Shown piece by piece: positions 1,403 through 50,709 of a stretch of 64,000 nt of DNA. The position numbers and the translations under genes were made by a program. Origin of the DNA: an uncultured Candidatus Saccharibacteria bacterium (GTDB lineage Bacteria > Patescibacteriota > Saccharimonadia > UBA4664 > CAYXHD01). Location of the stretch: positions 4,804-68,803 of the forward strand of contig CAZPDI010000001.1 of assembly GCA_964585425.1 (NCBI GenBank), given 5' to 3'. The notes beneath the pieces are model-generated. The model made no database searches. It was not told the DNA's origin and saw only the letters and a list, made by a program, of their open reading frames with translations. Every line of letters begins with the position of its first letter. Position 1 is the stretch's first letter.

Positions 1403-3034
1403 CTAATTATGCGGCATGTGGTCGTAGAGATGCTCCATGCCGTAAGAATGGCGCAGTAGCTTCTTGGTCTGATCGGTGGTGACGCCAATCTTTTTACCGG
1501 GATTCATGATGTTGTGCGGATCAAAGAGCTTTTTAACTTCTACGAATACCTTATACACATCCTGTCCATACAGGTCTTTAAGATAGGGCGCGCGACTCAA
1601 GCCGTCGTTATGTTCACCGCAGGTACTACCGCCAAGACTGATGACCATTTTGTAATACTCATCAGCTAGCTTAAGAACCTTGGTGCGATCTGTGGCTTTA
1701 CTAACATCCATAAAGGGCTGTAAGTGCAGATTAGCGTCGCCGGCATGCCCCCAAACCGCAATATCCAACTTATACTTTTTAAGAAGTTTGTAGGTCCCCT
1801 CTAGGAGCTTCTTAATATTATGGAGCGGCACCACGCCGTCTTCAATGATTGGTAAGGCTTTTTGTTTGCCTTTGTTCATCCAGATTACGGCAGCAGCCGA
1901 GTGACGTATGCGCCAGAGTTGCTGTTGCTCATCTTTTTTAACCGACATGCGGTGACTACGTGCATAGTTTTCGAGTATCCTAATAGCCCGATGAGCTTTG
2001 GTTTGACGCACAACGCTCGAATGATTATCGAACTCACACAACAAGACAATCTTGGGTGTTGGCGAAGGAACTAAACCACGGATCATACTGGGATGGTTCT
2101 TTTGTAAGAACTCCAACAGATTCTTATCGACAAACTCTAGAGCACTAGGCTCGAGCTTAATGAGTTTACGGCACGCCGCGGCCATATGGTCAAGATCATC
2201 AAAAAAGCCAACGAGCAGCGTAGTGTGCGGGTTATAGATAGGCACACTTAATTGAGCCTCGGTAACGATACCAAGCGTACCTTGCGAACCAACGATCATC
2301 GGCGTCAGGTCAAAACTACCGTACTTACCGCGAACGCCCCATAGGTTGTAACCGGCAGCATTTTTGCTGGTATGAGGACGAGCTTTATTAAGTAATGATT
2401 GGTTCTTGGCAATGAGCTCATCGAGCTCTCGGTAGATTTTACCCTCAAGGTTCTGTTGCTGCTTTTTACGAGCCAGTCCAAGCGGTGTAAGGCGTTTCGT
2501 AGTAATGATTTCGCCATTACTGAGCACCACCTGTAGGCTGCGTACATACTCGCGGGTTGATCCGTACTTAATCGTTTTTTCGCCACAAGCATTATTGCCA
2601 ATGGCCCCGCCAATACTACTAAAGTTAATGCTCGATGGATATGGAGGCATAAAGCGATGATGGCTATGAAGCACCCGCTGCAATGATGCATAGTGGACGC
2701 CCGGCTGAACAATCACCAGGTTCTTATCGATTTCTTTAATATGATGCATGTGGGCCGGGAACACCAGGCTCACCCCTTCGCCCAGAGCACCACCAGATTG
2801 ATCGGTGCCGCGGCCACGAGCTGTAATGCCAATGGTTTTGCGCTTACTGCGGGCTTCTTCGTCTAAAATCTTGACCACTTCGCTCACATCCTTGGTACTT
2901 GTAGGGTATACTACCGCCTGAGGTGTTTGGGTAAAAATACTACCATCAACGGCAAAGTAATCACGAATGTTTTGATCGGTAAAAATATCGGCCTTGGTGG
3001 CTTTTTCGATTTTAGTAATAAGTTCTTTGCGCAT
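1403..3034 (-). CDS. FAD-linked oxidase (GlcD / D-lactate dehydrogenase family)
   Basis: 543 aa with an FAD_binding_4-like N-terminal region (VVYPTSTKDVSEVVKI..GRGTDQSGGAL) and an FAD-oxidase C-terminal region (GGSTCGEHNDGLSRAPYL). Confidence 0.8.
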   Translation of the reverse strand: MRKELITKIEKATKADIFTDQNIRDYFAVDGSIFTQTPQAVVYPTSTKDVSEVVKILDEEARSKRKTIGITARGRGTDQSGGALGEGVSLVFPAHMHHIKEIDKNLVIVQPGVHYASLQRVLHSHHRFMPPYPSSINFSSIGGAIGNNACGEKTIKYGSTREYVRSLQVVLSNGEIITTKRLTPLGLARKKQQQNLEGKIYRELDELIAKNQSLLNKARPHTSKNAAGYNLWGVRGKYGSFDLTPMIVGSQGTLGIVTEAQLSVPIYNPHTTLLVGFFDDLDHMAAACRKLIKLEPSALEFVDKNLLEFLQKNHPSMIRGLVPSPTPKIVLLCEFDNHSSVVRQTKAHRAIRILENYARSHRMSVKKDEQQQLWRIRHSAAAVIWMNKGKQKALPIIEDGVVPLHNIKKLLEGTYKLLKKYKLDIAVWGHAGDANLHLQPFMDVSKATDRTKVLKLADEYYKMVISLGGSTCGEHNDGLSRAPYLKDLYGQDVYKVFVEVKKLFDPHNIMNPGKKIGVTTDQTKKLLRHSYGMEHLYDHMPHN

Positions 3035-3123
3035 ATGCTTATTGTAGCAATTTGGCGACTGTTATGCGACAGTTCAGGGGAACATTTATACGAAAAATCC
3101 TTTGGGATGATCCTTGTTCAAAA

Positions 3124-37606: not shown

Positions 37607-38416
37607 TTAGGCGCTGGCAATATTGCGGCGAGCAAAGACTATGCCACCAATAATGAGCAGAACAATTGATGCAGCCACCATTATTGCGACGTGACTGTAA
37701 TTTAACCCTTTGATCAGTACGTTCTCGGAACCATAGTAATAATAGACCGAAAGTTTATCATACGGTTTGAGGGCTTCGACGCCAGCGGCCATAGCGTTTA
37801 AGAAATATCCGGAAACCGCCAATATGCTGCTGACGGCAATGGCGATGCTACGCTTACCGAATATCGCGGCCACGGCATAGGTTAAGGAGAGGAAGAAGAC
37901 GAGGAAGAGCCAGACGTTAGCGGTGGCGGCAATAACCTTAAATACATCGAGGCTTAGGCCTTGTTGCCAGAGGCTGATACCTAAACCAATACACAAGCCC
38001 ACCATCAGTAAGGCAAAGATAATAACGGGGGCGATCCACTTACTAAGATACACTCGGGTGCGACTAACTGGTGCAGCCAGGAGGGTTTGCAGGGTGCCAT
38101 CTTCTTCTTCGGTAGCCAAACCAATACCCAGCATAATGCCCAGCACGGCGGCAATCATTGGCATGGTTTTACCAAAGATTTGTGAGCCAAAATACCCGGG
38201 CACGGTATTAAAGTCGCCACTCAAGCCGGCAATACTCTTGAGTGCCGGTGGCAGCGTCTGGAACTGCTGGTTGATAACGTCGCTACTGCCAAAGGTGCTG
38301 TAAAACACGCCGACAAACCAGGCGAGGAAGGCGAAGCCCAGGAACCAGCCGAGCAAGAACCAGCGTCGATCATATAGGGTTTTAGTAATTACACCGTGTG
38401 GCTTATACTTACTCAT
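37607..38416 (-). CDS. ABC-2 type transporter permease
   Basis: 269 aa with about six TM segments. It overlaps the upstream ABC ATPase gene by 4 nt. Confidence 0.6.
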   Translation of the reverse strand: MSKYKPHGVITKTLYDRRWFLLGWFLGFAFLAWFVGVFYSTFGSSDVINQQFQTLPPALKSIAGLSGDFNTVPGYFGSQIFGKTMPMIAAVLGIMLGIGLATEEEDGTLQTLLAAPVSRTRVYLSKWIAPVIIFALLMVGLCIGLGISLWQQGLSLDVFKVIAATANVWLFLVFFLSLTYAVAAIFGKRSIAIAVSSILAVSGYFLNAMAAGVEALKPYDKLSVYYYYGSENVLIKGLNYSHVAIMVAASIVLLIIGGIVFARRNIASA

Positions 38417-39303
38417 TTGATTTCTCCGTACAGCTTCATAAATACTTCTTCGAGCTCCAGCTCACGGTTGGATATGCTAACAACTTCATACTTACTGAGT
38501 GCTTTTAAGAATTCGCTAACATTGCCAGTAACGGTGCACGTCATGACATTGTCTTCAAAATGTATATCCTTCATACTCTTAAACGATTTAAAGGCGTCAT
38601 GGGCTGGCTCTTTGGCAAAACGCACTTCGAATTCCTGTAATGAAGATTGGCGAAGCTTATTAACGGTGCTGACTTCGGCCAATTCGCCGCCCCGGATAAA
38701 GCCGACGCGATCACAAACCTTTTGGACCTCACTTAAGTTATGACTACTCATAAAGGTGGTGCCGCCATTAGCTTGATGATCGGCCAGTAACTCATAAAAT
38801 GCCTCTTGCATCAATGGGTCTAGCCCAGTAGTTGGCTCATCCATAATAAGCAGCTGCGGTTTGTGCATCATGGCAGCAATCAAACCAATCTTTTGTTTGT
38901 TGCCGCGCGAGAGGTGCTTGATGCGCGGTCGCAAATCGGCCTGTAGCTTACTGGCCAAGATGGCAATCTGACCACTCTCCACATCGCCATGGAGGTTTGC
39001 CATGTAGCCGATGTATTGCTCAGCCCGCAAATTATCGTACATACTCATATCCCCGGCCAAGTAGCCGATGTGCTTGTGGAGCTCTTTATAATCTTGTACC
39101 GAATCATATCCCAAGATTTTAATCGAGCCGGAAGTAGGATGTATCAAATTCAACATGGCGCGTATAGCAGTAGTTTTACCAGCACCGTTTGGCCCTAAAA
39201 ACCCGAAAATCTCTTTTTCTTTAAAGGTCAGGTTTATGTCTTTAAGCGCAGTCAGGTTACCGAATTGCTTGCATAAATCCTTAATTTCTACCGCATACTT
39301 CAT
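38413..39303 (-). CDS. ABC transporter ATP-binding protein
   Basis: 296 aa with Walker A GPNGAGKTT, signature LSRGNKQK and Walker B LLIMDEPTTGLD. Confidence 0.9.
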   Translation of the reverse strand: MKYAVEIKDLCKQFGNLTALKDINLTFKEKEIFGFLGPNGAGKTTAIRAMLNLIHPTSGSIKILGYDSVQDYKELHKHIGYLAGDMSMYDNLRAEQYIGYMANLHGDVESGQIAILASKLQADLRPRIKHLSRGNKQKIGLIAAMMHKPQLLIMDEPTTGLDPLMQEAFYELLADHQANGGTTFMSSHNLSEVQKVCDRVGFIRGGELAEVSTVNKLRQSSLQEFEVRFAKEPAHDAFKSFKSMKDIHFEDNVMTCTVTGNVSEFLKALSKYEVVSISNRELELEEVFMKLYGEIK

Positions 39304-39315
39304 ATGCTTATTGTA

Positions 39316-39942
39316 CTACCAGTCGAAGTATTTCTCAATTTCGGCATGCAGTACGGCTAACGGATCTTGATCATCCGTATGCTTAGCATCTTCCGGGGCA
39401 GCAGCATCGGCTTTATTCTTTGGCTTAGCCTTGGGTCGCTTCTTTTTATAGGCCAAGGTGCTTTTGAGGTTGTTCATAAAATGGAGGTAAGGCTCAAACA
39501 TTTCTTCTTTATACAGGGCCGAGTATTTATTTCGATTCGGTATGATGAGCGTTTCAAGCTTGTCTTGTTCTATAAAGTACTTCACCAAGCACTGGAAGTC
39601 GCCGTCACCGCTTATCACAATTGCTTTATCGTATTTGTCATAATCTATCATGGCCTGCAGCACCAGCTCGGCGTCACAGTTACCCTTGGTGGTGCCGTCT
39701 TTATGCTCGATAGTCGGTTTATAAATACATACAAAACCGGCCGCCTCCAAGGTGTTATAGAGGTCTTCGTGCCCCTCAATAAAACCCACAAAAATATAGG
39801 CCTTCACCACGTTGTAATTTTCGGCTAGATAGGCTCGGAAACGCTTATGATCAAGCGGCCAGCCCATTTCGCGAATGGAGAGGTTGAGGTTTTGACTATC
39901 GATAAATGCATAATTGCCGAGCTGGTCGGTCTTGGGTTCCAT
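39316..39942 (-). CDS. NYN-domain (LabA/DUF88-like) protein with a Lys-rich C-terminal tail
   Basis: 208 aa. FIDSQNL..GNCDAELV..ISGDGDFQCLV matches the LabA-like NYN pattern. The tail reads KKKRPKAKPKNK. Confidence 0.65.
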   Translation of the reverse strand: MEPKTDQLGNYAFIDSQNLNLSIREMGWPLDHKRFRAYLAENYNVVKAYIFVGFIEGHEDLYNTLEAAGFVCIYKPTIEHKDGTTKGNCDAELVLQAMIDYDKYDKAIVISGDGDFQCLVKYFIEQDKLETLIIPNRNKYSALYKEEMFEPYLHFMNNLKSTLAYKKKRPKAKPKNKADAAAPEDAKHTDDQDPLAVLHAEIEKYFDW

Positions 39943-39977
39943 GCAAAGATTGTATCACATACAGCCCCTCATTGCTA

Positions 39978-40006
39978 TTGCATTATGTCGCAAAATATGA
40001 TTAAAT
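39978..40006 (+). promoter_or_regulatory. Candidate promoter of GC-rich unit 3a
   Basis: TTGCAT (39978-39983), a 17-nt spacer, then TTAAAT (40001-40006) with TG two nt upstream. The aaatNtgaTTAAAT block is shared with the unit 3b promoter. Confidence 0.5.
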
Positions 40007-40040
40007 AGTATGGTTCTGCTACCTATCCCTAAGGATTCCA

Positions 40041-40415
40041 ATGAATGCACCTGCCCGTCCCATGCCCGACATCACCGATGTGGAGCTGACCAAGAAGATC
40101 ATCGATGAACGTGTGAAGCACCACAACCTGCGCCATGAAGATGGTGAAGCGATCTGGATGGTAGTCACGGCCATCGGTCATGCCATCAAGATCGGTGATC
40201 CTCAGTACAGCCCGATGATCGACCGCAACGTCACGGGGCTGCGCAACGAGGCGAGGCCAGGCGAAGTTCCGGTCATCTTGCTGTCCGACCTGAACCGCAT
40301 CTTCTGTGACGACACGTTGATACGCGAGCTGCAGCGGGTGTTCCCGAGCATCGTCAATGATGCGGCGCGCGTTGCCTGCTGGAAGTTCCGCAACTGCATG
40401 TACGGATGCGACTGA
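40041..40415 (+). CDS. GC-rich ORFan, 124 aa (variable partner of module copy 1)
   Basis: ATG follows the SD TAAGGA. GC3-rich codons. It ends in the junction GAC TGA TC ATG. Confidence 0.55.
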   Translation: MNAPARPMPDITDVELTKKIIDERVKHHNLRHEDGEAIWMVVTAIGHAIKIGDPQYSPMIDRNVTGLRNEARPGEVPVILLSDLNRIFCDDTLIRELQRVFPSIVNDAARVACWKFRNCMYGCD

Positions 40416-40417
40416 TC

Positions 40418-40627
40418 ATGCGCCTTCGGATCCCCTGGCGCAAGCAAACCGTGCCGCCGCCACCCGCGACTGTCGCGATGAAGGCTGCGCCCCTGGTGCC
40501 GCCACCTCATCGCCGGATGACGGCCGAAGAACGCGCTGCGTGCTGCCAAGATCAGAGGAAGATCAAGCTGCGTGCTGCCAAGCGTTGTCGGCGCAAGGCC
40601 CGAAAGCGCCGACTGCGCAACAAGTAA
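40418..40627 (+). CDS. Pro-rich / strongly basic mini-protein, 69 aa (conserved partner, copy 1)
   Basis: The start was set at ATG 40418, matching the paralog junction TGATCATG; the track start is 40406. It shares the core VAMKxAPLxPPPxRRMTAEERAA and a K/R tail with ORF 42234..42467. Confidence 0.55.
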   Translation: MRLRIPWRKQTVPPPPATVAMKAAPLVPPPHRRMTAEERAACCQDQRKIKLRAAKRCRRKARKRRLRNK

Positions 40628-40647
40628 CCCCCGTGAGGCGGATCGCC

Positions 40648-40680
40648 GAAAGGTCCCTCTTGCGGGGGATCTTTCGTTAT
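40648..40680 (+). terminator. Terminator hairpin, divergent copy of the conserved island-3 terminator
   Basis: GAAAGGTCCC-tcttgcg-GGGATCTTTC followed by GTTAT. Confidence 0.55.
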
Positions 40681-40687
40681 GGTGATA

Positions 40688-40716
40688 TTGATTTATACCT
40701 GTAAATGTGATTAAAT
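40688..40716 (+). promoter_or_regulatory. Candidate promoter of GC-rich unit 3b
   Basis: TTGATT (40688-40693), a 17-nt spacer, then TTAAAT (40711-40716) with upstream TG. Confidence 0.5.
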
Positions 40717-40750
40717 TTCCCTATTCCGTTTCGAGTCCAAAGGAGAGACC

Positions 40751-40984
40751 ATGACGGACGCACATGCCACGGCCGTCTCCACGGTCTATTTTTGGCTCGA
40801 GTACGAGTTGGGTATCGATAATCCTGATCACGTTGAACTGACCATGATTATCGAGAATGGCTGGCTGCGCTATCGGTGCCCGGCCCACGACATCACCCCG
40901 CTTGAAATCGCCCGCCTCGAAGCTGCCTGCCGGCACCACGCCCATTCTCTTGAAGTGCACCTGAACCTGGAGGTTCAATCATGA
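40751..40984 (+). CDS. GC-rich ORFan, 77 aa
   Basis: ATG follows the SD AAAGGAGAG. ATGA overlap at 40981-40984 couples it to the next ORF. Confidence 0.5.
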   Translation: MTDAHATAVSTVYFWLEYELGIDNPDHVELTMIIENGWLRYRCPAHDITPLEIARLEAACRHHAHSLEVHLNLEVQS

Positions 40985-41733
40985 TTGTCCACAAGCACGA
41001 CATCGATACCGCAGCTCGTCTGGCCGCCAAAGAGCGGTTCATGAACGAGTCATGGCTGGATGATCGCAAGGTGCGATCATGGTTCGCTTGGCTCGGTATC
41101 CGTCCTGACGGTCATCAAGCATTGCGCATCTTGCGCGCTGTGCATGCCACGGCTGCCACCGTGCGTGAGTACAAGATCCACCATCGCCACACGCGCTTCG
41201 GTCGAACGATGCGCCTGCAGCGCCGGCTCCCACCGTGGCCCGCCAAGTACGCGGATACCCCGGTCATCAATGCCGCGCAGATGCTGCTGGTGACTCAGCG
41301 CACGGACTACATCCACCTCACGGAGCTGACGCGACCAATTACGGGTACCAGTTATCGGCACGGCGACAATCGACGCGTCGATATGGAAACGTGCAAGATG
41401 TTCCTGGAGAACGTGCAGAGCAAGTTCATGCGCGAAGCCGTTTGGTCAGATGAGTTGGTATGTATCGAGAGCTTTGCGCGGCTCGGCCTGACGCCCGATG
41501 AGCTGCTGGTGGCCGAGATGGCTCTGATCCGTCTGATGAGTAGGTATCGGCACGAAAAGGGGCTTACCTGGTATCTGATGCCGACCTATGGCAGCCGGAG
41601 CCGCCGCTTGCACACCCTCACCATGGGTGATTTCTTGAACATCACCCGATTTCTCCAACCCAACTATGGCGACACCGACATGGAGTTTCTCATGACGCTG
41701 GCCGATCGTCTGCGTTCGCGACTTGCGACCTGA
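40981..41733 (+). CDS. GC-rich ORFan, 250 aa, Arg/His-rich
   Basis: Translationally coupled to the 77-aa ORF. No motif recognised. Confidence 0.55.
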   Translation: MIVHKHDIDTAARLAAKERFMNESWLDDRKVRSWFAWLGIRPDGHQALRILRAVHATAATVREYKIHHRHTRFGRTMRLQRRLPPWPAKYADTPVINAAQMLLVTQRTDYIHLTELTRPITGTSYRHGDNRRVDMETCKMFLENVQSKFMREAVWSDELVCIESFARLGLTPDELLVAEMALIRLMSRYRHEKGLTWYLMPTYGSRSRRLHTLTMGDFLNITRFLQPNYGDTDMEFLMTLADRLRSRLAT

Positions 41734-41753
41734 TCTCGACACATACCCTCGCG

Positions 41754-41796
41754 GGGGCTTTTCTACGGAAAGGTCCCTGCGGGGGATCTTTCGTTT
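41754..41796 (+). terminator. Conserved 43-nt terminator element, copy A
   Basis: The element reads GGGGCTTTTCTACGGAAAGGTCCCTGCGGGGGATCTTTCGTTT. It contains the mini-hairpin CTTTTC-tacg-GAAAGG plus a 10-bp stem GAAAGGTCCC/GGGATCTTTC and a T-rich tail. Confidence 0.65.
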
Positions 41797-41801
41797 ATAG
41801 C

Positions 41802-41830
41802 TTGCAATATCAATACTTTAAATGTATAAT
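41802..41830 (+). promoter_or_regulatory. Candidate promoter of GC-rich unit 3c
   Basis: TTGCAA (41802-41807), a 17-nt spacer, then TATAAT (41825-41830) preceded by TG. Confidence 0.65.
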
Positions 41831-41859
41831 TTGTAAATCCGTACGACCAAGGAGTACCC

Positions 41860-42231
41860 TTGACCGAAGCCAATACCCTACCCAAGGCCGATGCCAGCGT
41901 CAAGCTGTCCGACGACATCATCGCAAGCTGCTACGAGGGCTGCGATCCCCGTGAGTCCGATCGAGCTCGCGGCTGCATCGCCGCCCTCAAGGACCTGCTA
42001 CGGCTCGCCGAGAAGACGCCGAACGACGCGCGCTACCAGGAGATCCGGGAGTTCGACGCCGACACCCTGACCGTTGGCCAGTTCATCACCCTGATGTACC
42101 TGCCGGCGATGTCGCCGAATCAGCCCCGCCAGCTGATGCGCAACGTGCGTAGCAACTGGGGGCGACTCAACCAGCGAGTTCTCATCGAGCTGCGAGACAA
42201 GCTGGATGAGCGCTACGAGCCCCAGGACTGA
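41860..42231 (+). CDS. GC-rich ORFan, 123 aa (variable partner of module copy 2)
   Basis: TTG start 5 nt after the SD AAGGAG. It ends in the same GAC TGA TC ATG junction as 40041..40415, but the two proteins show no visible similarity. Confidence 0.5.
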   Translation: MTEANTLPKADASVKLSDDIIASCYEGCDPRESDRARGCIAALKDLLRLAEKTPNDARYQEIREFDADTLTVGQFITLMYLPAMSPNQPRQLMRNVRSNWGRLNQRVLIELRDKLDERYEPQD

Positions 42232-42233
42232 TC

Positions 42234-42467
42234 ATGGGCATCTGGAACTCTCGGCGCAAGAAGACGACACCACCGCCACCTCCTCCTGCACCTCCTCCGC
42301 CGCCCGCGGCTGTCGCGATGAAGACTGCACCACTGGCGCCGCCACCGCGTCGCCGAATGACGGCCGAAGAACGCGCCGCTCTCAAGCTGCCCAAAGTGAA
42401 GGCCCGGCAGCGCCTGGCCAAGAACCGACGCGCCAAGGTCAGGAAGCGCAAGCACAAGAAGTCCTGA
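42234..42467 (+). CDS. Pro-rich / strongly basic mini-protein, 77 aa (conserved partner, copy 2)
   Basis: Paralog of 40418..40627. It contains PPPPPPAPPPPPAAVAMKTAPLAPPPRRRMTAEERAA and the tail KARQRLAKNRRAKVRKRKHKKS. Confidence 0.6.
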   Translation: MGIWNSRRKKTTPPPPPPAPPPPPAAVAMKTAPLAPPPRRRMTAEERAALKLPKVKARQRLAKNRRAKVRKRKHKKS

Positions 42468-42479
42468 TCGCGCCCCTGT

Positions 42480-42523
42480 GGGGACTTTTCTACGGAAAGG
42501 TCCCTGCGGGGGATCTTTCGTTT
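42480..42523 (+). terminator. Conserved 44-nt terminator element, copy B
   Basis: The element reads GGGGACTTTTCTACGGAAAGGTCCCTGCGGGGGATCTTTCGTTT. It is identical to copy A except for one inserted base. Confidence 0.65.
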
Positions 42524-42534
42524 TTAAATGAGAA

Positions 42535-42558
42535 AGACCCAGGATTTCTCCTAGGTCT
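42535..42558 (-). terminator. Hairpin with GAAA tetraloop terminating the minus-strand 143-aa cassette
   Basis: On the minus strand: AGACCTAGGA-gaaa-TCCTGGGTCT, a 10-bp stem with one G-U pair, followed by TTCTCATTT. Confidence 0.55.
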
Positions 42559-42603
42559 AGGGGCCAGGGATTCGACTACCCTGCACCCCCATCCACAACC
42601 TGT

Positions 42604-43035
42604 TCACGCCTGCATATCAGGCGGCAAGGTGAAGGCGTCAGGGTACGAGATGACCAGATCATTATCGTTCAACGGATAGATCGCGCCCCAGTCCGTAAGC
42701 ACGAACCGTTCGCAGAACGTCTGATCCACAGCACGAGCATACGCTGGTATATCACGCAGATCGTCTTTCGTCAGCTCTTGCCCCCAGTAAAAGGTCCCTT
42801 TGTCATGAGAGTTGTGAGTAACGACCTTGTCATCAGGACATATGAATGTGTAGATCTCTGTGAAATCAAAGCCGATAGCCCCTTGCTGGTGCTTAACCCC
42901 GAGAGGGTCACGGCCTGCCGTGACGATGGCATCAACTCGAGACAACACGCCAGTCGGGTATATGTAGCGAGCCACCAACAACTTGGTGGCGACCACGTCG
43001 ATGTGCTTGGTCTGGCTTTCACCCTCGGTATCCAT
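42604..43035 (-). CDS. ORFan, 143 aa, intermediate GC, own promoter and terminator
   Basis: ATG follows the leader ..CCAACCAACGAAGGGG, which carries the SD. No motif recognised. Confidence 0.5.
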   Translation of the reverse strand: MDTEGESQTKHIDVVATKLLVARYIYPTGVLSRVDAIVTAGRDPLGVKHQQGAIGFDFTEIYTFICPDDKVVTHNSHDKGTFYWGQELTKDDLRDIPAYARAVDQTFCERFVLTDWGAIYPLNDNDLVISYPDAFTLPPDMQA

Positions 43036-43076
43036 GATGCGCCCCTTCGTTGGTTGGACTTGAAAAGGATAGTTGC

Positions 43077-43105
43077 ATAATACTCCCGGCAGTTCACTGC
43101 CGCAA
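43077..43105 (-). promoter_or_regulatory. Candidate promoter of the 143-aa cassette
   Basis: On the minus strand: TTGCGG (43105-43100), a 17-nt spacer, then TATTAT (43082-43077). Confidence 0.45.
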
Positions 43106-43119
43106 GAGTAAGCGGTTTA

Positions 43120-43545
43120 CTAGAGCCCCTCTATAAATGTCTCGATAAAGCTATTCAGCTTGCTGCCAACTCGAGTAATGATCGAGTCTCGCTCCAAAAT
43201 CTTGGGCTTAGCTATTAATGTAGCGGCAATCTCATTGCGGCGTGGCTTGCGGCCAGTGAATAAGTAATCGTTAATCAGTTTTTGCAATTCATCGGTCATT
43301 AGACCTTCTTCAACACACATGGCCTCAAAAGCTTTAGCGCGCTCGACATTCCAGAACGAATCAAACTCACCAGCTACATCTTCAGGATTCTCGATCTTGG
43401 GTAGCGATCGGGCAATAAATTTCTCAATCAGCTCGCGCTTGCTACGCAGCACGGCATTGCCCATAAGCGTGTTATTAAGATTATCGATTATCTGAGCTTT
43501 TTTTGATCTTCCGACATAACCCCTCGCTTTGTGTCTATTGTACAC
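43120..43545 (-). pseudogene. hsdR: Fragment resembling the C-terminal domain of a type I restriction enzyme R subunit (EcoR124-type HsdR)
   Basis: 141 aa. LRSKRELIEKFIARSLPKI..FDSFWNVERAKAFEAMCVEEGL..LINDYLFTGRKP..KLNSFIETFIEGL matches my memory of the HsdR C-terminal domain. The helicase and nuclease body is absent. Confidence 0.55.
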
Positions 43546-43577
43546 GTTTTCTTCTAATGTTTATATCTGTCGCCATC

Positions 43578-43606
43578 TTGACATATCGCTTGTGCTAGCA
43601 TATTAT
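43578..43606 (+). promoter_or_regulatory. Strong orphan promoter in the hsdR-fragment / NYN intergenic gap
   Basis: TTGACA (43578-43583), a 17-nt spacer, then TATTAT (43601-43606). Confidence 0.6.
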
Positions 43607-43612
43607 ACGTAT

Positions 43613-43690
43613 ATCCAATGGTTGTACCATTCAACTGTCGGGGAATTACATCCGAGAGCGACCTTCTTTAAAGAGGGTCGTTATTTTTTT
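43613..43690 (+). ncRNA. Candidate small RNA of about 78 nt (promoter to intrinsic terminator, no convincing ORF)
   Basis: Downstream of the promoter above lie an internal hairpin AATGGT-tgt-ACCATT and a terminator CGACCTTCT-ttaa-AGAGGGTCG (43659-43680). The run TTATTTTTTT follows. Confidence 0.4.
43659..43690 (+). terminator. Intrinsic terminator (plus-strand orientation)
   Basis: A 9-bp stem with one G-U pair, loop TTAA, then TTATTTTTTT. It overlaps the stop codon of the minus-strand NYN gene. Confidence 0.6.
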
Positions 43691-44229
43691 GCGCGGTACA
43701 CCAGCGGCTTGCCCCAAATATCCTCACTTATTCTCAAAATATCAATGTAGCCATCGCCCCCTGTAAGAAGTTCACTAGATACATTATTTTTAGATGATAC
43801 AATATATACTTTTTTATCACGATTGCGGATAAAACTCACAAGTTCGAGGAAGTCTGAGTCGCCACTAAACAGGACGGCCACATCGTACGAATTGACTAGG
43901 GCTACAGCATCAATGGTAAGCTCAACATCCATATTACCCTTTTCAATAATTAATCCACTACCAGTTTTTATCTGCTTGAGTGGTTTTTTGCGGACTATAT
44001 ATCCCATTCTTTTTTGCAGTGCAGTGTAGAAAGAATGCTTATTCGAAACACTATACTCTCGAGTACCAACCTCGGGATAGGCATCATAATAGTAAATCTC
44101 TAATACACTTGCATGGTATTTTACTTTCAGATAGTTTTTGAGTTTTTTCATATCTAAAAGAACCCCTTTGGTCTTTTGGGCCTGCCAGAGATTAGAGGCA
44201 TCAATAAAAACGTGAACTCTTTTATTCAT
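43681..44229 (-). CDS. NYN-domain (LabA/DUF88-like) protein
   Basis: The start was moved to Met19 (44229). VHVFIDASNL..GNMDVELT..FSGDSDFLELV matches the LabA-like NYN pattern. Confidence 0.65.
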   Translation of the reverse strand: MNKRVHVFIDASNLWQAQKTKGVLLDMKKLKNYLKVKYHASVLEIYYYDAYPEVGTREYSVSNKHSFYTALQKRMGYIVRKKPLKQIKTGSGLIIEKGNMDVELTIDAVALVNSYDVAVLFSGDSDFLELVSFIRNRDKKVYIVSSKNNVSSELLTGGDGYIDILRISEDIWGKPLVYRAKK

Positions 44230-44393
44230 ATCATTAATTATACGGTATTTGTTCGGTATTAGTCGAGGCCGTAATGTCCCCACCGTGTCCGTTCTTCAAA
44301 GTGGGGTTTTTGAGCTCGAGAAAGTCGATGATGGGTTGGATACCTACCTTGGCCGAAGTAGTAACTTCTAGGCCTTTATCATTTATGTAGTGC

Positions 44394-44422
44394 TTGCTTT
44401 TTTATAAGTTTTATGCTAGTAT
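44394..44422 (+). promoter_or_regulatory. Candidate promoter of GC-rich cassette 4
   Basis: TTGCTT (44394-44399), a 17-nt spacer, then TAGTAT (44417-44422). Confidence 0.45.
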
Positions 44423-44457
44423 ATACGCATCTTGGCCGTCTAGCAAAAGGAAACATC

Positions 44458-44868
44458 ATGCCAAGCGCACAGACCATCCTCCCTCTGACCGCCGAACAGG
44501 TGGCCATGCCCGTGACCGCTGCCATCCTCACCACGGAGGACATCATCGGCGACCACGGGAGGTACCCGAAGGACATCGCTCACAGCTTGTCCACCATCTG
44601 CGAGTTCCTGCAGGAGGTCAAGCGGGAGGTCAAGCAGAGTCCAAGGGCCTACCTCGGCTGGTTGGAGTTGGCGGATGAGAACGGGGTGCGCTTCAGCGAG
44701 CGCGATTACCCCAGCATCACCGCAGGGTTCCTCCTGGCCGTGATGGAATCCAGCGCCGCCTGGGGCACCGTGATGAAGCACGGTCCGGAGGACTACTGCT
44801 TCGAGCAGCTGAACATGCTGAGGACGGCGGTCTACGCCCTCCTCTTCAAGCGGTCGCTGGCTGGCTGA
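44458..44868 (+). CDS. GC-rich ORFan, 136 aa
   Basis: The start was moved to ATG 44458, behind the SD AAAAGGAAA; the track start 44413 lies in the promoter. No motif recognised. Confidence 0.55.
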   Translation: MPSAQTILPLTAEQVAMPVTAAILTTEDIIGDHGRYPKDIAHSLSTICEFLQEVKREVKQSPRAYLGWLELADENGVRFSERDYPSITAGFLLAVMESSAAWGTVMKHGPEDYCFEQLNMLRTAVYALLFKRSLAG

Positions 44869-44893
44869 GGTTCTTCCTCCGCCAGCACCACGC

Positions 44894-44940
44894 CCCACTC
44901 GGGGTCTTCTACGGAAGACTCCGAGTGGGTTTTTCGTTTA
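44894..44940 (+). terminator. Intrinsic terminator with C(UACG)G tetraloop closing cassette 4
   Basis: CCCACTCGGGGTCTTC-tacg-GAAGACTCCGAGTGGG forms a 16-bp stem with one G-U pair, followed by TTTTTCGTTTA. It is convergent with typA. Confidence 0.75.
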
Positions 44941-44944
44941 TGCC

Positions 44945-46777
44945 TTACTTTTTGTTATTAGCGGCGCGCTTGCGCATGGAGGGGTTGAGTTCGCGTTTGC
45001 GGAGGCGGAGACTCTTGGGTGTGACTTCCAATAGCTCGTCGTTTTCCAGGAAGTCGATGCATTGTTCGAGGCTAAAAATAGTGTGTGGCGTGAGGCGGAC
45101 AGTGCCGTCACTGGATGAGCTACGCATGTTAGTGAGGTGTTTTTCTTTACAGACATTCATTTCCATATCGTCACCGCGGCTGTTGAGACCGACGATCTGA
45201 CCAGCGTAGACTTTGACGCCAGGACCAACGTACATGGTGCCGCGTTCTTCGGCCATTTGCAGGGCGTACGGCGTGGTCGTGCCAGTTTCGAAGGCAATCA
45301 GGGCACCGTTACGAAGTTGCTGCAGGGCGGGACCTTGCGGTTCGTAACCAACCATCAAGCTGTTCATGATAATTGTGCCCTTAGTGGCAGTTACTAAGAC
45401 GTTTCGAAGACCAAGTAAGGCTCGGGTTGGGAGTTCGTACACCAGTTTAGTGACGCCAGCGGCGTTGGCGAACTGCTCTTTAACGGTGGCGCGGCGTTGG
45501 CCAAGCTCCATTTGGACGGCACCGACGTATTCGGCCGGAACTTCGATGATGAGCTCTTCGATTGGCTCCATGGTCTTGCCGTTTTCTTGCTTGGTAACAA
45601 CTTGCGGGCGGCCAACTTCTAGCTCGTATCCTTCGCGGCGCATAGTTTCGATGAGCACCGACAGGTGTAGTTCGCCACGACCACTAACTAAATTGCCAAT
45701 TCCGCTGGGCTCGACACGCAGGCCAATATTGGTCTCCAGTTCTTTTTCGAGCCGTTCACCGATTTGACGGCTGGTAGTAAACTCACCTTCTAGACCCTTG
45801 AATGGACTAGTGTTTGGTCCTAGGTAAATCTGCAATGTTGGAGCTTCGATTTCCAGCACTGGTAGAGCTTCGGGCTGTTCGGCATCAGCAATGGTTTCAC
45901 CAATCTTGGCGTTAGCAATACCAGTAAGCTGGATAATCTCACCAGCAATGGCGCTGTCCACCGGATACTTGCTCACGCCTTGGCTGGCAAACACGCCATC
46001 AACTTTGGCTTTAGATTGCTTACCGTCTTTATCGATAAGGGTAACAGCATCACCAGTTTTAACACTACCGCGGGTAATGCGACCAACAGCGTATTTACCC
46101 TTAAATGAATCATACGAGAGAGCAGTGACAAGCATCTGGAAAGGCTTATCGAGCTCTACGTCTGGCGCAGGAATATCGTTCTTAATGGCAGTAAAGATTA
46201 CCTCCAGGTTAGCATCTTCTTCGGGATTAGCTGGCACCCCGGCCCAAGCTTTACCGGCGCGACCAATGGCGTAATAAATTGGGTAAAAGAGTTGATCTTC
46301 GTGCACGGCCAGCTCGAGGAAGAGGTCAGCTAATTCTTCTTCGACTTCGGCAATACGACTACCTGGCTTATCAATTTTGTTAATAACAACGATAGGCTTG
46401 AGACCCATGGCAAGTGCCTTAGAAAGCACAAACTTAGTTTGTGGCATCGGACCTTCTTGGGCGTCGACTATCAGTAAACAGCCGTCTGCCATATTAAGGG
46501 TTCGCTCTACCTCACCACCAAAGTCGGCGTGTCCAGGCGTATCGATAATATTAATGCGGATATCATCGTGCTGCACGGCCGTAACTTTAGCGGTAATAGT
46601 AATACCGCGCTCGCGCTCTTGGTCGCCACTATCCATGATCAGTTCTTGACCCATCTCGGCCTGGTTATCACGAAAGATTTTTGACTGCTTTAACAGGCCA
46701 TCTACCAGGGTAGTTTTACCGTGATCGACGTGAGCAATAATAGCAATATTACGAATGTTTTTTGGATCTTGTTGCAT
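44945..46777 (-). CDS. typA: Translational GTPase TypA/BipA
   Basis: 610 aa with [33 protein letters not shown] and NKID, plus the TypA-specific C-terminal domain. Confidence 0.95.
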
Positions 46778-46883
46778 TAAAAAACGCCTCCCCGGCGTGC
46801 TAGGTATTATTAGAGTAATTATAGCATAAATATCCTAAATATCATACAATTAGACAGTTCGCCCATCTACTAAAGGGGAAGTA

Positions 46884-47258
46884 GTGCACCTCACTAATCC
46901 AAGTCGCCGCCGAACTGATTCTGACGTGGTCATGCTGGTTCGTACGCCAGGTGGCCACCTGGCTGTGCTGGTCTTTACTGCTACAGCCCGTGGACAACGC
47001 CTTCGTCTGGATAGTCAAACATGGAATGGTGTGACGTTTGACGATATGGATGACGCCATCAAAGCGCTCCAGGAAACGGCCGACGCTCACTTGATTACCG
47101 AGAACAACCGTGTGACGGACACGTTGCTTCATGCCAATCCATTGGATTCGCACTTCTTCTTGATGGAGCCCTGGGATCACAAACGCTTCATCGAAGCGAT
47201 CAAACGGGATGGTCTGTTCGATTGTCAGCGTCCGGTGTTCACACCCGTCACCCGCTGA
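46884..47258 (+). CDS. ORFan, 124 aa, moderately GC-enriched
   Basis: GTG start follows the SD AAAGGGGAAG. No motif recognised. Confidence 0.45.
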   Translation: MHLTNPSRRRTDSDVVMLVRTPGGHLAVLVFTATARGQRLRLDSQTWNGVTFDDMDDAIKALQETADAHLITENNRVTDTLLHANPLDSHFFLMEPWDHKRFIEAIKRDGLFDCQRPVFTPVTR

Positions 47259-49188: not shown

Positions 49189-50709
49189 TTAGCTAAACAA
49201 ACTCGGTTGCGTGCCGGCAGTTCCCCTGGTTATTTCATCGAGCACTTCGTAAATGCGCACCATGGCCAAGGTATCGAGCGCACAATAGACCAGCAAATCA
49301 TCGAAAACCTTTTGCGCCTCATCGGCCGGCATGTCGCCAAACACCGCACGCATGTATGAACCTTGGGCATCACCACCATTTTGAATACCAAGTTCTTTAT
49401 AGCTTAAATCAGGTGCCAACACTGGTAGGACATTTTTAATACTGGCACTGCCCATAAAACGGGAGTCAACATAGAGCTGTTGCTGGAAGGGATCGATGAG
49501 ATCAACCACACGAGCATTTAGATCAAGCAAGAAGTCGGCGTGCTCCGGGAACATCTCGGCCATTTCGCTGTGGCGCCCGCATTCGAACGCTTTATACCAT
49601 ACGGCGATACTACCAGTAGGGCCAATATCGCGCTTGAGCTGCTCAATGAGTGGCGGCATGGGATTACTCTGCTCCGTCCATAAAAATTCGGTGTGACGCA
49701 ACTCTTGGCCCGGCGCATCAAGAATATGCAAACTGTACTGCATAGGAATTTGCTGATACGGCTTGGTGCCGTCGTATAGTGGCACCGCATCGGCCGCCGT
49801 TTCGTAATCTAAAAAGTAAATTGGGAATTGGATGGTTTGCATAAATTTAGCGATGGCTGGGGCGTCGATGCGCACCTCTCCACTCTTGGTGGTAGCGATT
49901 TGCATTTGCTGAGCCGGCGCCAGCGTACTAATAATCTCCGCGGGTACGTCTTGGATTTTAGTAACTCCGGCGGCCTCCAGCTGCTCAATAAGTTTTGGAT
50001 TCAACCGAGCGAGATTAAGGATGCTGTCAGTCGGCACTTCGCCTTTGAGTTTCTTGTAAATAGGCATCCAATCAAAATAGCCACCATAACTTGCCAGTCG
50101 CGGTGACAAGCTTGGACAATCCGGACTTAGAATCACGTCAAAGGCTTCTTGGACTTTAGCGTCCATGGCCAACATTGTATTATGTACGTCATCAGTCACA
50201 TCGGTGATGCTAGTGAGAGCCATAACATCGATATCACCATTCCGCACATACTGACCATTAACATGGACCACGGCAGTTTTGCGCACCCGATAGCCGCAAG
50301 CCTCTATGGTACGCTTTTGGAATGCCAGATCCCAGGTGTGATCCGGCTTGGCTTTGGTACTAACTTTAATTTCATAAATATCAAACTCATCACCGCCGAC
50401 GCGAACCATGACATCGGTTAAGCAAGCCGTGTTATCAGGCGCCGTGAATTTGGCCTGAAATAATGTTTGAGCGCCAGTCGCCAATAAACGCGCCGTGACT
50501 CGATCCTTTTCGAAGTAATCACCAGTGATGCGTTGACCATCACTAAACAGTTGCTCGGCAAGAGCTTCGAAGCGAAAGCCCATATCAAAAAGAGCTTGGG
50601 TATTAGCATCAATCGGCGGCAGCTTATTGGGCTCAAACTTTTTAAGCCACAACCAAGCCGGGTGTTTTAAAAATACCATAAAGTCAGATTTAGAAAGTTG
50701 ACGTGCCAT
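49189..50709 (-). CDS. DUF2779-like protein (putative PD-(D/E)xK nuclease N-terminus plus exonuclease-like C-terminus)
   Basis: 506 aa. The N-terminus LSKSDFMVFLKHPAWLWLKK resembles the DUF2779 family start. The assignment is from memory only. Confidence 0.45.
   Translation of the reverse strand: MARQLSKSDFMVFLKHPAWLWLKKFEPNKLPPIDANTQALFDMGFRFEALAEQLFSDGQRITGDYFEKDRVTARLLATGAQTLFQAKFTAPDNTACLTDVMVRVGGDEFDIYEIKVSTKAKPDHTWDLAFQKRTIEACGYRVRKTAVVHVNGQYVRNGDIDVMALTSITDVTDDVHNTMLAMDAKVQEAFDVILSPDCPSLSPRLASYGGYFDWMPIYKKLKGEVPTDSILNLARLNPKLIEQLEAAGVTKIQDVPAEIISTLAPAQQMQIATTKSGEVRIDAPAIAKFMQTIQFPIYFLDYETAADAVPLYDGTKPYQQIPMQYSLHILDAPGQELRHTEFLWTEQSNPMPPLIEQLKRDIGPTGSIAVWYKAFECGRHSEMAEMFPEHADFLLDLNARVVDLIDPFQQQLYVDSRFMGSASIKNVLPVLAPDLSYKELGIQNGGDAQGSYMRAVFGDMPADEAQKVFDDLLVYCALDTLAMVRIYEVLDEITRGTAGTQPSLFS

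Follow-up and report, generated by a model that had tools for sequence, protein, structure and literature searches.

Was a restriction gene replaced in place by a nuclease gene, or did a restriction operon collapse beside a nuclease gene that was already there? This question is raised by positions 43,120 to 44,380 of a stretch of 64,000 nucleotides from an uncultured Candidatus Saccharibacteria bacterium (contig CAZPDI010000001.1, positions 4,804 to 68,803; the whole stretch is called “the window” below), where a fragment of hsdR, the gene for the R subunit of a type I restriction-modification (R-M) system, lies downstream of an intact gene for an NYN-domain nuclease. An earlier reading made from the letters of the window without database searches (the “sequence-only reading”) took this fragment, together with a short frame on the other side of the nuclease gene, for the two ends of a single hsdR whose middle part had been replaced by the nuclease gene as incoming cargo. 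The analysis described here leads to a different answer. The remnant is probably the scar of an internal deletion that brought the start of hsdM, the methylase gene of the same operon, up against the end of hsdR, and not the trace of a replacement by the NYN gene; the short upstream frame is a chance similarity inside a cassette insertion; and the NYN gene is a conserved resident which is accompanied by a small-RNA (sRNA) gene of its own.

The host is a soil-type Saccharibacterium (Patescibacteria, or Candidate Phyla Radiation, CPR), whose typA gene is 76-93% identical to those of 80 Candidatus Saccharibacteria/Saccharimonadales metagenome-assembled genomes (MAGs). The loci and contigs of relatives and metagenomes with which the window was compared are labelled by L-numbers (L001, L084 and so on), and the coordinates of the features discussed are collected in Table 1.

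The hsdR remnant

The open reading frame (ORF) that contains the fragment, taken mechanically, occupies 43120-43545 of the minus strand (141 aa) and extends to a GTG at 43545. The proposal of the sequence-only reading that it encodes an HsdR C-terminus is borne out by both profile and protein comparisons. The frame matches the Pfam family EcoR124_C (PF12008) at E 2.2e-18 (67 bits against a cut-off of 23, over positions 134-260 of the 260 in the profile) and the PADLOC model REase_I at positions 840-927 of 976, and it aligns to the extreme C-terminus of three full-length HsdR proteins of 942-948 aa from Saccharibacteria operons (L103, L178 and L174) with identities of 60% (residues 810-942 of 942), 55% (821-948 of 948) and 43% (821-947 of 947), the best of the three being the HsdR of L103, which comes from a complete operon. 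An exhaustive HMMER search equates the tail with residues 814-943 of 953-aa proteins. In the opposite direction, full-length HsdR proteins align in the window solely to 43123-43515, and at the DNA level homology with L001 and L002 hsdR is confined to 43119-43502 and ends exactly at the stop codon; about 14% of hsdR is left.

The remainder of the system is missing from the window. The superfamily 2 helicase core (ResIII/DEAD, T1R_D3) was not found, the HsdR proteins of L103, L174 and L178 and the helicase piece of L001 reaching just the UvrA, UvrB and typA regions at E 0.4-1, and tblastn of the 64 kb with the HsdM, the HsdS and the N-terminal part of the HsdR of L085 gave nothing at E<=1, in agreement with the failure of the sequence-only reading to see an hsdM or hsdS. 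Since no methylase, specificity subunit, nuclease domain or motor remains, the restriction system at this site is dead. The more general view of the region as a decayed type I restriction locus is thereby supported, and GC-rich (guanine- and cytosine-rich) cassettes abut the remnant region on both sides.

The tail itself has been little damaged. The 127 codons that align with six homologues are free of gaps, stops and frameshifts, and of the 46 residues invariant in the family 43 survive. Nonsynonymous divergence per site (pN) is 0.17-0.28 and synonymous divergence (pS) is 0.78-0.97, which means that the synonymous sites are saturated; most of the divergence of the tail must therefore predate the deletion, and the ratio dN/dS is uninformative about recent constraint. 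The surviving tail is most likely a young pseudogene. Its membership in a family of stand-alone short proteins was considered, given that its closest homologues are all short, and was rejected, as the same region forms the C-terminus of HsdR proteins of ~950 aa; the short database matches are dominated by contig-edge fragments, and those in L001 and L002 are fragmented full-length genes.

These two genes, L001 600-4258 and L002 1-1980, are the hsdR genes closest to the window tail, and both are broken, that of L002 by a single in-frame stop and that of L001 by several frame breaks, which may be long-read assembly errors, as neighbouring type IV secretion genes are split too. Both adjoin type IV secretion gene clusters, and L001 has an ORF resembling a reverse transcriptase (YRDDYRIF) upstream. 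Two further hsdR tails are independently truncated at the 5' end, at L092 101-604 and L093 356-877 (54% and 71% identical to the window tail), with breakpoints within ~25 codons of that in the window; no tRNA was found at the start of the L092 contig.

The junction between hsdM and hsdR

The sequence that adjoins the tail on its 5' side has the features of an hsdM start. The minus strand 5' of the hsdR homology reads GAGGGG-TT-ATG TCG GAA GAT CAA AAA AAG CTC AGA TAA (43525-43488), that is, a Shine-Dalgarno (SD) sequence (GAGGGG, 43525-43520) and an ATG (43517-43515) which opens the peptide MSEDQKKLR*, in the +1 frame with respect to the hsdR tail. L085 HsdM begins with MSEDQKK; the exact sequence opens 67 of the 120 best homologues of that protein (81 of 120 with conservative variants), and elsewhere in the window and 173 loci, searched in six frames, the pattern M[ST]E[DE]QKK occurs only at true hsdM starts. 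The remnant agrees with L085 hsdM at 18 of 21 nt, all three mismatches being synonymous third positions, as compared with 10-12 of 21 for hsdR at the aligned place. The match extends through the SD sequence and the 5' untranslated region (5'UTR), L174 agreeing at 24 of 28 nt and L178/L180 at 32 of 41, and in all four comparisons made the local alignment score was higher than that of every one of 200 shuffles.

Because the 5' partner of the tail is the 5'UTR, SD sequence and first seven codons of hsdM, and because it lies downstream of the NYN gene, an internal deletion within the operon, rather than replacement by NYN, is the probable origin of the remnant. The history that we infer is as follows. 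The ancestral order would have been typA - NYN - sRNA - hsdM - (accessory genes, hsdS, accessory genes) - hsdR, for which the order NYN-sRNA-hsdM-hsdS-hsdR in L161 today provides a precedent. A single internal deletion of roughly 7-9 kb would have joined hsdM codon 7 to hsdR codon ~812, probably at a microhomology: where hsdM has GAA GAT CAR AAA AAA (E-D-Q-K-K), hsdR has GAA GAG/GGG CAA AAR (E-E/G-Q-K), and GAA GAN CAA AAA is shared. Such a deletion would have left behind the hsdM 5'UTR, the SD sequence and MSEDQKK, a run of seven A residues (A7), and the last ~130 hsdR codons out of frame with the hsdM ATG. Later or independently, GC-rich cassettes would have entered the interval from typA to NYN and the position immediately behind the hsdR stop.

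One more A in the run (A8) would bring the hsdM ATG into frame with the hsdR tail, giving MSEDQKKAQIIDNL. A 1.1-kb metagenome contig (L098 1-1109) carries NYN, the sRNA element, and hsdS residues 2-94 joined directly to hsdR residues ~400-446. It represents a second, independent internal deletion in an NYN-linked type I operon; such deletions recur.

The region upstream of NYN

The sequence-only reading had seen an HsdR N-terminal nuclease block at 44284-44378 and hence HsdR remnants on both sides of the NYN gene. The frame can indeed be read (SAKVGIQPIIDFLELKNPT; KSKHYINDKGLEVTTSAKVGIQPIIDFLELKNPT), and one frame contains an ELKNP-like string, but no similarity to HsdR could be detected by any of the methods applied. 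The 44237-44401 frame has no match to any Pfam family, HSDR_N (PF04313) included, at E<=10 and none to NCBIfam, TIGR00348 included, at E<=1, in a search that detects the L103 HsdR at 1.8e-146; tblastn with the N-terminal parts of the HsdR proteins of L001, L085, L103, L174 and L178 found no match anywhere in the window; and when 864 six-frame pieces were scored at E<=1000 by a custom hidden Markov model (HMM) made from five family N-termini, the alleged block was not among them. The short frame was also tried as the 3' end of hsdM, which precedes NYN in L085, again with no match.

L084, the closest relative, indicates what this region is. In L084, whose typA is 82% identical in nucleotides and whose NYN protein is 78% identical in amino acids, the NYN promoter region begins 9 bp past the typA stop and NYN follows, without hsdR. 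Blastn aligns L084 1-1527 to 46478-44952 of the window and L084 1537-2201 to 44263-43601; since the alignment skips window positions 44264-44951, these constitute a 688-bp insertion. The alleged block lies inside it, as the antisense of the AT-rich region upstream of a cassette ORF at 44413-44868 (+), and is a chance similarity. The interval of 740 bp in which 2.6 kb of helicase was to be expected likewise has no basis, because the frame that bounds it upstream is without HsdR similarity and within the insertion. Of the two supposed HsdR fragments, then, one is recovered by profile searches and the other is not, and a relative shows typA, NYN and the sRNA in the same arrangement with no hsdR present.

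The NYN genes

The two genes that the sequence-only reading had assigned to the NYN family, here called NYN1 and NYN2, are genuine members, matching Pfam NYN (PF01936) at E 7e-24 (85.4 bits) and E 4e-13 (50.5 bits) respectively, against a cut-off of 24.2 bits; the alignment of NYN2 with the NYN1 gene on L003 is at 29%. NYN1 also matches the PADLOC models NYN (PDLC01154, E 7e-13) and HEC-09 (PDLC04163, E 4e-8). It contains a single NYN domain only, and no architecture that combines an ABC-ATPase with an anticodon nuclease. Within its acidic motifs (DASN, GNMDVE, GDSDF) the residues D10, N13, D101, E103, D107, D124 and D126 are invariant in 30 homologues including NYN1 itself; these acidic residues are the catalytic ones in PIN-like folds. 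More than 1300 homologues of ~185-195 aa were found, at ~60% identity, in Saccharimonadales, Parcubacteria, Pacebacteria, Moranbacteria and others.

By comparison of loci, NYN1 is a resident gene and not an invader, because L084 shows synteny of NYN with typA while lacking hsdR, because ~60% identity is maintained across its more than 1300 homologues, and because in relatives it resides in intact type I operons. The idea that NYN arrived as the replacement of hsdR is not supported by these observations.

In L084, the NYN-sRNA pair is followed, where the window has the scar, by a convergent gene (2377-3087, minus strand) for a stand-alone protein of 236 aa with a weak match to HSDR_N_2 (PD-(D/E)XK-like), which has no counterpart in the window. 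In L131, L153 and L167, one or two additional NYN paralogues, divergent at 26-33% identity, are found no more than a few kb from the NYN1-type gene, an arrangement that echoes NYN1 and NYN2.

A small-RNA gene convergent with NYN

The sequence-only reading had noted an orphan promoter-terminator pair in the space that also holds NYN. The pair is present, in the interval from NYN to the hsdR piece, and encloses no ORF, but it is no orphan: it is a conserved sRNA gene which is linked to NYN by nhmmer matches and whose structure is supported by covariation. In the window, its promoter consists of a -35 element TTGACA (43578-43583) and a -10 element TATTAT (43601-43606), with a score of 11/12, and the predicted transcript of ~80 nt (~43613-43690) ends in a terminator hairpin (43657-43682) whose U-run is antisense to the last NYN codons.

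Conservation of the element first showed in a blastn comparison of L084 with L085: their NYN coding DNA has diverged too far for alignment, yet the ~85 nt that follow the NYN stop are conserved. With an nhmmer profile, the element was located immediately behind the NYN stop, and on the same relative strand, at essentially all NYN loci (86 matches, or 85 with a profile of 3 sequences); a single copy is present in the window, none lies near NYN2, and none was found in the 80 typA loci. An alignment of 70 sequences gives the promoter consensus TTGAC(T/A)-17 nt-TATACT on the strand opposite NYN, followed after ~7 nt by a transcript with a 5' hairpin (GUCUUUCAGUU-loop-AACUGAAAGGG), a nearly invariant single-stranded linker UAUUACAUCCAAG, and a hairpin of 12 bp that has a GNRA-like loop, with a U-run.

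The fold of the window sRNA is better than those of all 200 shuffles (z = -3.7). Across the alignment, paired cells make up 96.8%, as compared with 87.5% in shuffles and 38-63% after sliding of the partners; double changes occur in 12 of 21 pairs; and the compensatory cells number 147 against 41 +/- 5 in shuffles, none of the 500 shuffles reaching the observed value. A coding interpretation of the element is excluded, because the loop lengths vary by non-multiples of three. Rfam 15 has no match at E<=1 in window 38000-47000, and in ten other loci none at the element except a chance-level SCARNA7 hit in L127 (24 bits, gathering threshold 65).

Several other possibilities were examined and rejected. 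A phage origin of the sRNA receives no support: among 2.9 million viral contigs, just one contains the core motif. For a pairing between the linker and the region where translation of NYN starts, the duplex energy is -6.9 as compared with -7.0 in shuffles, and so there is no signal. On the NYN strand, a canonical promoter was looked for and the candidate TTGAAT...TATAAT has a spacer of 21 nt, the well-formed promoter being that of the opposite strand.

The most likely role of the sRNA would be that of an antitoxin-like or autoregulatory partner, for example an antisense one, of the NYN nuclease. A wider proposal can be made tentatively, with confidence a little short of even: NYN and its convergent structured sRNA of ~80 nt may form an undescribed two-component module across the Patescibacteria, an RNase with a dedicated RNA partner (antitoxin, guide-like cofactor or autoregulator), which has been recruited recurrently into the accessory slot of type I operons and which in the window has outlived the operon. 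A literature search found nothing that ties Patescibacteria NYN proteins to an sRNA.

NYN and type I restriction operons in relatives

The association of NYN with type I operons is visible in a number of relatives. L085-L088 (Saccharimonadales) have the intact operon hsdM(553)-NYN(188)-243-175-hsdS(406)-250-Fic(290)-hsdR(948). In L100, L103 and L106, hsdM lies directly upstream of NYN, and the L103 operon is complete; L151 has hsdM and NYN followed at a distance by hsdR, L161 has NYN, hsdM, hsdS and hsdR in succession, and L145, L155, L168 and L171 have other N6-methylase genes upstream of NYN. NYN is thus embedded among hsd genes in L085-L088, L100, L103, L106 and L151, while in the window it lies upstream of the operon scar. 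A metagenome scan supplied 80 NYN loci beyond L085-L088, and R-M genes are adjacent in 10 of them, which are L098 and the nine loci from L100 to L171 just described, as against 1 of 80 typA loci (1.41 Mb), which makes them about ten times commoner beside NYN. Where the flanks of an NYN locus are informative, about 85% of loci lack an R-M neighbour, and NYN also occurs in unrelated contexts, for example between pheS and pheT in L089.

The operons belong to a type I R-M family that is widespread in Saccharibacteria and CPR (L174-L180, L085, L103) and whose HsdM proteins are 75-91% identical across 120 clusters. After hsdM, members of the family carry NYN with the sRNA, DUF4145 or DUF3800; between hsdS and hsdR they carry SduA_C (Shedu-like), AAA_13, Fic or genes of no recognised kind. 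These two places are variable accessory slots of the PrrC/RloC kind. A literature search for a link between NYN domains and type I R-M systems found nothing.

Weighing the alternatives

A number of points weigh against the deletion history and the module as set out above. Among the relatives compared, none has an intact operon at the exact site (neither hsdR nor NYN occurs downstream of typA in any of the 80 typA genomes of the synteny search), and the ancestral state is thus reconstructed rather than observed. In most relatives NYN lies downstream of hsdM and not upstream, so the adjacency in the window could be a secondary juxtaposition. The E-D-Q-K of the hsdM match could be the E-E-Q-K of hsdR displaced by a +2 shift in the A-run, and only ATG-TCG and the SD/UTR sequence upstream discriminate between the two. 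The intactness of the tail, which has no stops and keeps nearly all of its invariant residues, also fits a retained function, as does the existence in L092 and L093 of similar truncated tails with non-hsdR sequence upstream. Finally, expression of the sRNA is predicted. The third of these points leads directly to an explanation in which the MSEDQKK match is coincidental and the hsdR fragment was broken a few codons upstream of a +2 frameshift in the A-run, either by an unrelated rearrangement or by its arrival as a fragment, for example through natural transformation. The resemblance of the two genes at the aligned place makes this conceivable, as does the fact that Saccharibacteria loci are highly rearranged downstream of typA, where no conserved gene order was found among the 80 genomes. 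It is nevertheless unlikely, because ATG-TCG and the SD/5'UTR fit hsdM well (18/21 and 32/41 nt) and hsdR poorly, and because the motif, which is the consensus N-terminus of the HsdM family, is confined to true hsdM starts. Retention of the HsdR C-terminal domain as a functional stand-alone protein of ~130-140 aa, which might for example modulate or compete for methylase binding, is about equally improbable. For its expression, such a protein would draw on the hsdM promoter and SD sequence that survive, possibly with slippage on the A7 run to give MSEDQKKAQIIDNL in frame, and a promoter-like region, an SD and an ATG do lie just upstream of an uninterrupted ORF, while the L092 and L093 tails, with their closely placed breakpoints, show that truncation of this kind is not unique to the window. 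Against this, the hsdM ATG does not share the frame of the tail, and no SD precedes the in-frame GTG (43545) or ATG (43464); with saturated synonymous sites, selection on the fragment is inseparable from past selection on the intact gene; the apparent short homologues are mostly contig-edge pieces of a region that the ~950-aa proteins cover; and no partner methylase is left in the window.

Two further explanations are very improbable. The first is that of the sequence-only reading, an hsdR split in place, with its N-terminal block upstream of NYN and its C-terminus downstream, and with NYN as cargo in the place of the helicase core. The C-terminal piece is genuine, the ELKNP-like string exists, and all of the pieces are on the same strand; but the upstream piece failed every search for HsdR similarity (Pfam, NCBIfam, tblastn with five HsdR N-termini, custom HMM) and belongs to an insertion that is absent from L084, where NYN directly follows typA, NYN is a conserved resident with a dedicated sRNA, and it is the start of hsdM, not further hsdR sequence, that adjoins the tail. 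The second is that the juxtaposition arose as a chimera of low-GC and high-GC contigs in the assembly of the MAG. The source is a metagenome assembly, and against a GC content of ~47% across the window a composition scan shows GC-rich islands with sharp bounds, with abrupt steps at 43100 and 44400. However, a Logan contig from another sequencing run (L003, SRR13208896), assembled independently, is 100% identical over window 42943-44535 and so spans both GC steps, and the relative L004 has the same cassette end motif after its typA stop. Because this independent contig is identical across both composition boundaries, the arrangement of the locus is no assembly artefact.

Cassettes and other features of the window

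The cassette between typA and NYN consists of an AT-rich 5' part (44264-44412), the ORF at 44413-44868, which has no Pfam or PADLOC match, a hairpin (44894-44929), and a tail TTTTTCGTTTA that abuts the typA stop. The neighbouring GC-rich island 3 begins immediately after the stop of the hsdR tail, and the L001/L002 homology ends at 43119. The cassettes at 39990-43119 and 44264-44944 and those at L004 4589-6600 share a common build: an AT-rich, promoter-like 5' part, one or more GC-rich ORFs without family match, a hairpin with the loop CTACGG, and the end motif GGGGGATCTTTCGTTTATA. This motif is found at 41779 and 42506, against 0 occurrences expected by chance, and in degenerate form at 40661 and 44927; in L004, which has different cassette genes, the typA stop is followed by the reverse complement of the motif. 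The cassette insertions start directly behind two stop codons, that of typA and that of the hsdR tail.

Island 3 also contains two paralogous small ORFs, at 40406-40627 and 42234-42467 (+), which encode proline-rich, basic proteins of 73 and 77 aa (PPPP...VAMKxAPLxPPPxRRMTAEERAA...K/R-rich). Each follows a cassette ORF of ~123 aa, and an 86-nt repeat is 87% identical between the two. Among the larger ORFs of the window, the 20 that were checked are housekeeping or transport genes or have no Pfam match. A DUF2779 gene lies at 49189-50709 (-), and a gene of the same family is found just downstream of the hsdR pseudogene of L002.

Table 1. Features of the locus and its surroundings, in window coordinates
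Feature	Position	Strand	Remarks
NYN2, divergent NYN-domain gene	39316..39942	(-)	29% identical to NYN1; without sRNA
GC-rich island 3	39990..43119	(.)	Several cassettes, each ending in a hairpin and then GGGGGATCTTTCGTTTATA; repeat families D1-D8
hsdR 3' remnant	43120..43515	(-)	Residues ~810-942 of a ~945-aa EcoR124-type R subunit
hsdM 5' remnant	43497..43538	(-)	Part of 5'UTR, SD, ATG, codons 1-7 (MSEDQKK)
A7/T7 homopolymer at the probable deletion junction	43498..43504	(.)	Codon comparison with L002, L093 and L103 hsdR and L085 hsdM
Small-RNA gene	43578..43690	(+)	The “orphan promoter-terminator pair”; convergent with NYN
NYN1, 182-aa NYN/LabA-like predicted nuclease, intact	43681..44229	(-)	Promoter-like site 44266-44237
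Lineage-specific GC-rich cassette between typA and NYN	44264..44944	(+)	Blastn against L084; GC 0.62 vs ~0.40
typA/bipA	44945..46777	(-)	Syntenic anchor for relatives

Significance and comparison with known systems

Taken alone, the hsdR tail is an ordinary relic, which shows that restriction was lost recently at this site in this lineage of Saccharibacteria. The loss is relevant in an organism for which natural competence is reported and whose genome carries many foreign-looking cassettes rich in GC. The part of the locus that is worth following is the NYN-sRNA module and its recurrent residence in restriction operons. If the sRNA controls or partners NYN, the two would constitute a new RNA-protein module in organisms that have very few characterised regulatory RNAs, and a new type of cargo in restriction operons beside the genes of the PrrC/RloC type.

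Among known restriction systems, the locus belongs with the type I systems of the EcoR124I type, of which the tail preserves the second half of EcoR124_C, the last ~130 residues of HsdR proteins of ~945 aa, together with the start of the partner hsdM family. R-M genes are often lost or pseudogenised. Compared with decayed orphan hsd pseudogenes, the window, which keeps 14% of hsdR and 7 codons of hsdM, is distinguished by what appears to be an hsdM'-'hsdR fusion instead of decay by point mutation.

Restriction-linked accessory genes inside type I hsd operons are exemplified by PrrC in the EcoprrI locus and by RloC and the rlo genes. NYN and its sRNA resemble these in occupying, in relatives, the variable slot right after hsdM, and NYN is a predicted RNase, as PrrC is an RNase. 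The resemblance does not extend to the protein, whose fold is PIN-like and which is no anticodon nuclease of the ABC-ATPase type, or to its distribution, which is mostly without R-M neighbours, and NYN is always accompanied by its own sRNA gene, which PrrC and RloC are not known to be. The PADLOC models NYN and HEC-09 are likewise listed without an sRNA partner, and NYN1 covers the nuclease half only of the 310-position NYN model (149-301).

The toxin-antitoxin (TA) systems provide the other natural comparison. In type III systems (ToxIN) the RNA is a tandem repeat, upstream of the toxin gene and on the same strand, whereas the NYN sRNA is single-copy, downstream of NYN and on the opposite strand. 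Closer in arrangement are the type I systems txpA/RatA and bsrG/SR4 of B. subtilis, in which toxin gene and antisense RNA are convergent and overlap at their 3' ends. NYN and the sRNA, in the 70 aligned loci, are also convergent, with their own promoters, a common terminator hairpin and a 3' overlap. They differ from the type I systems in that NYN is a soluble predicted nuclease of 182 aa and not a small hydrophobic membrane peptide, in that the sRNA overlaps the NYN coding region by a few nt only, and in that the sRNA carries UAUUACAUCCAAG, an invariant single-stranded linker suggestive of recognition by a protein or in trans.

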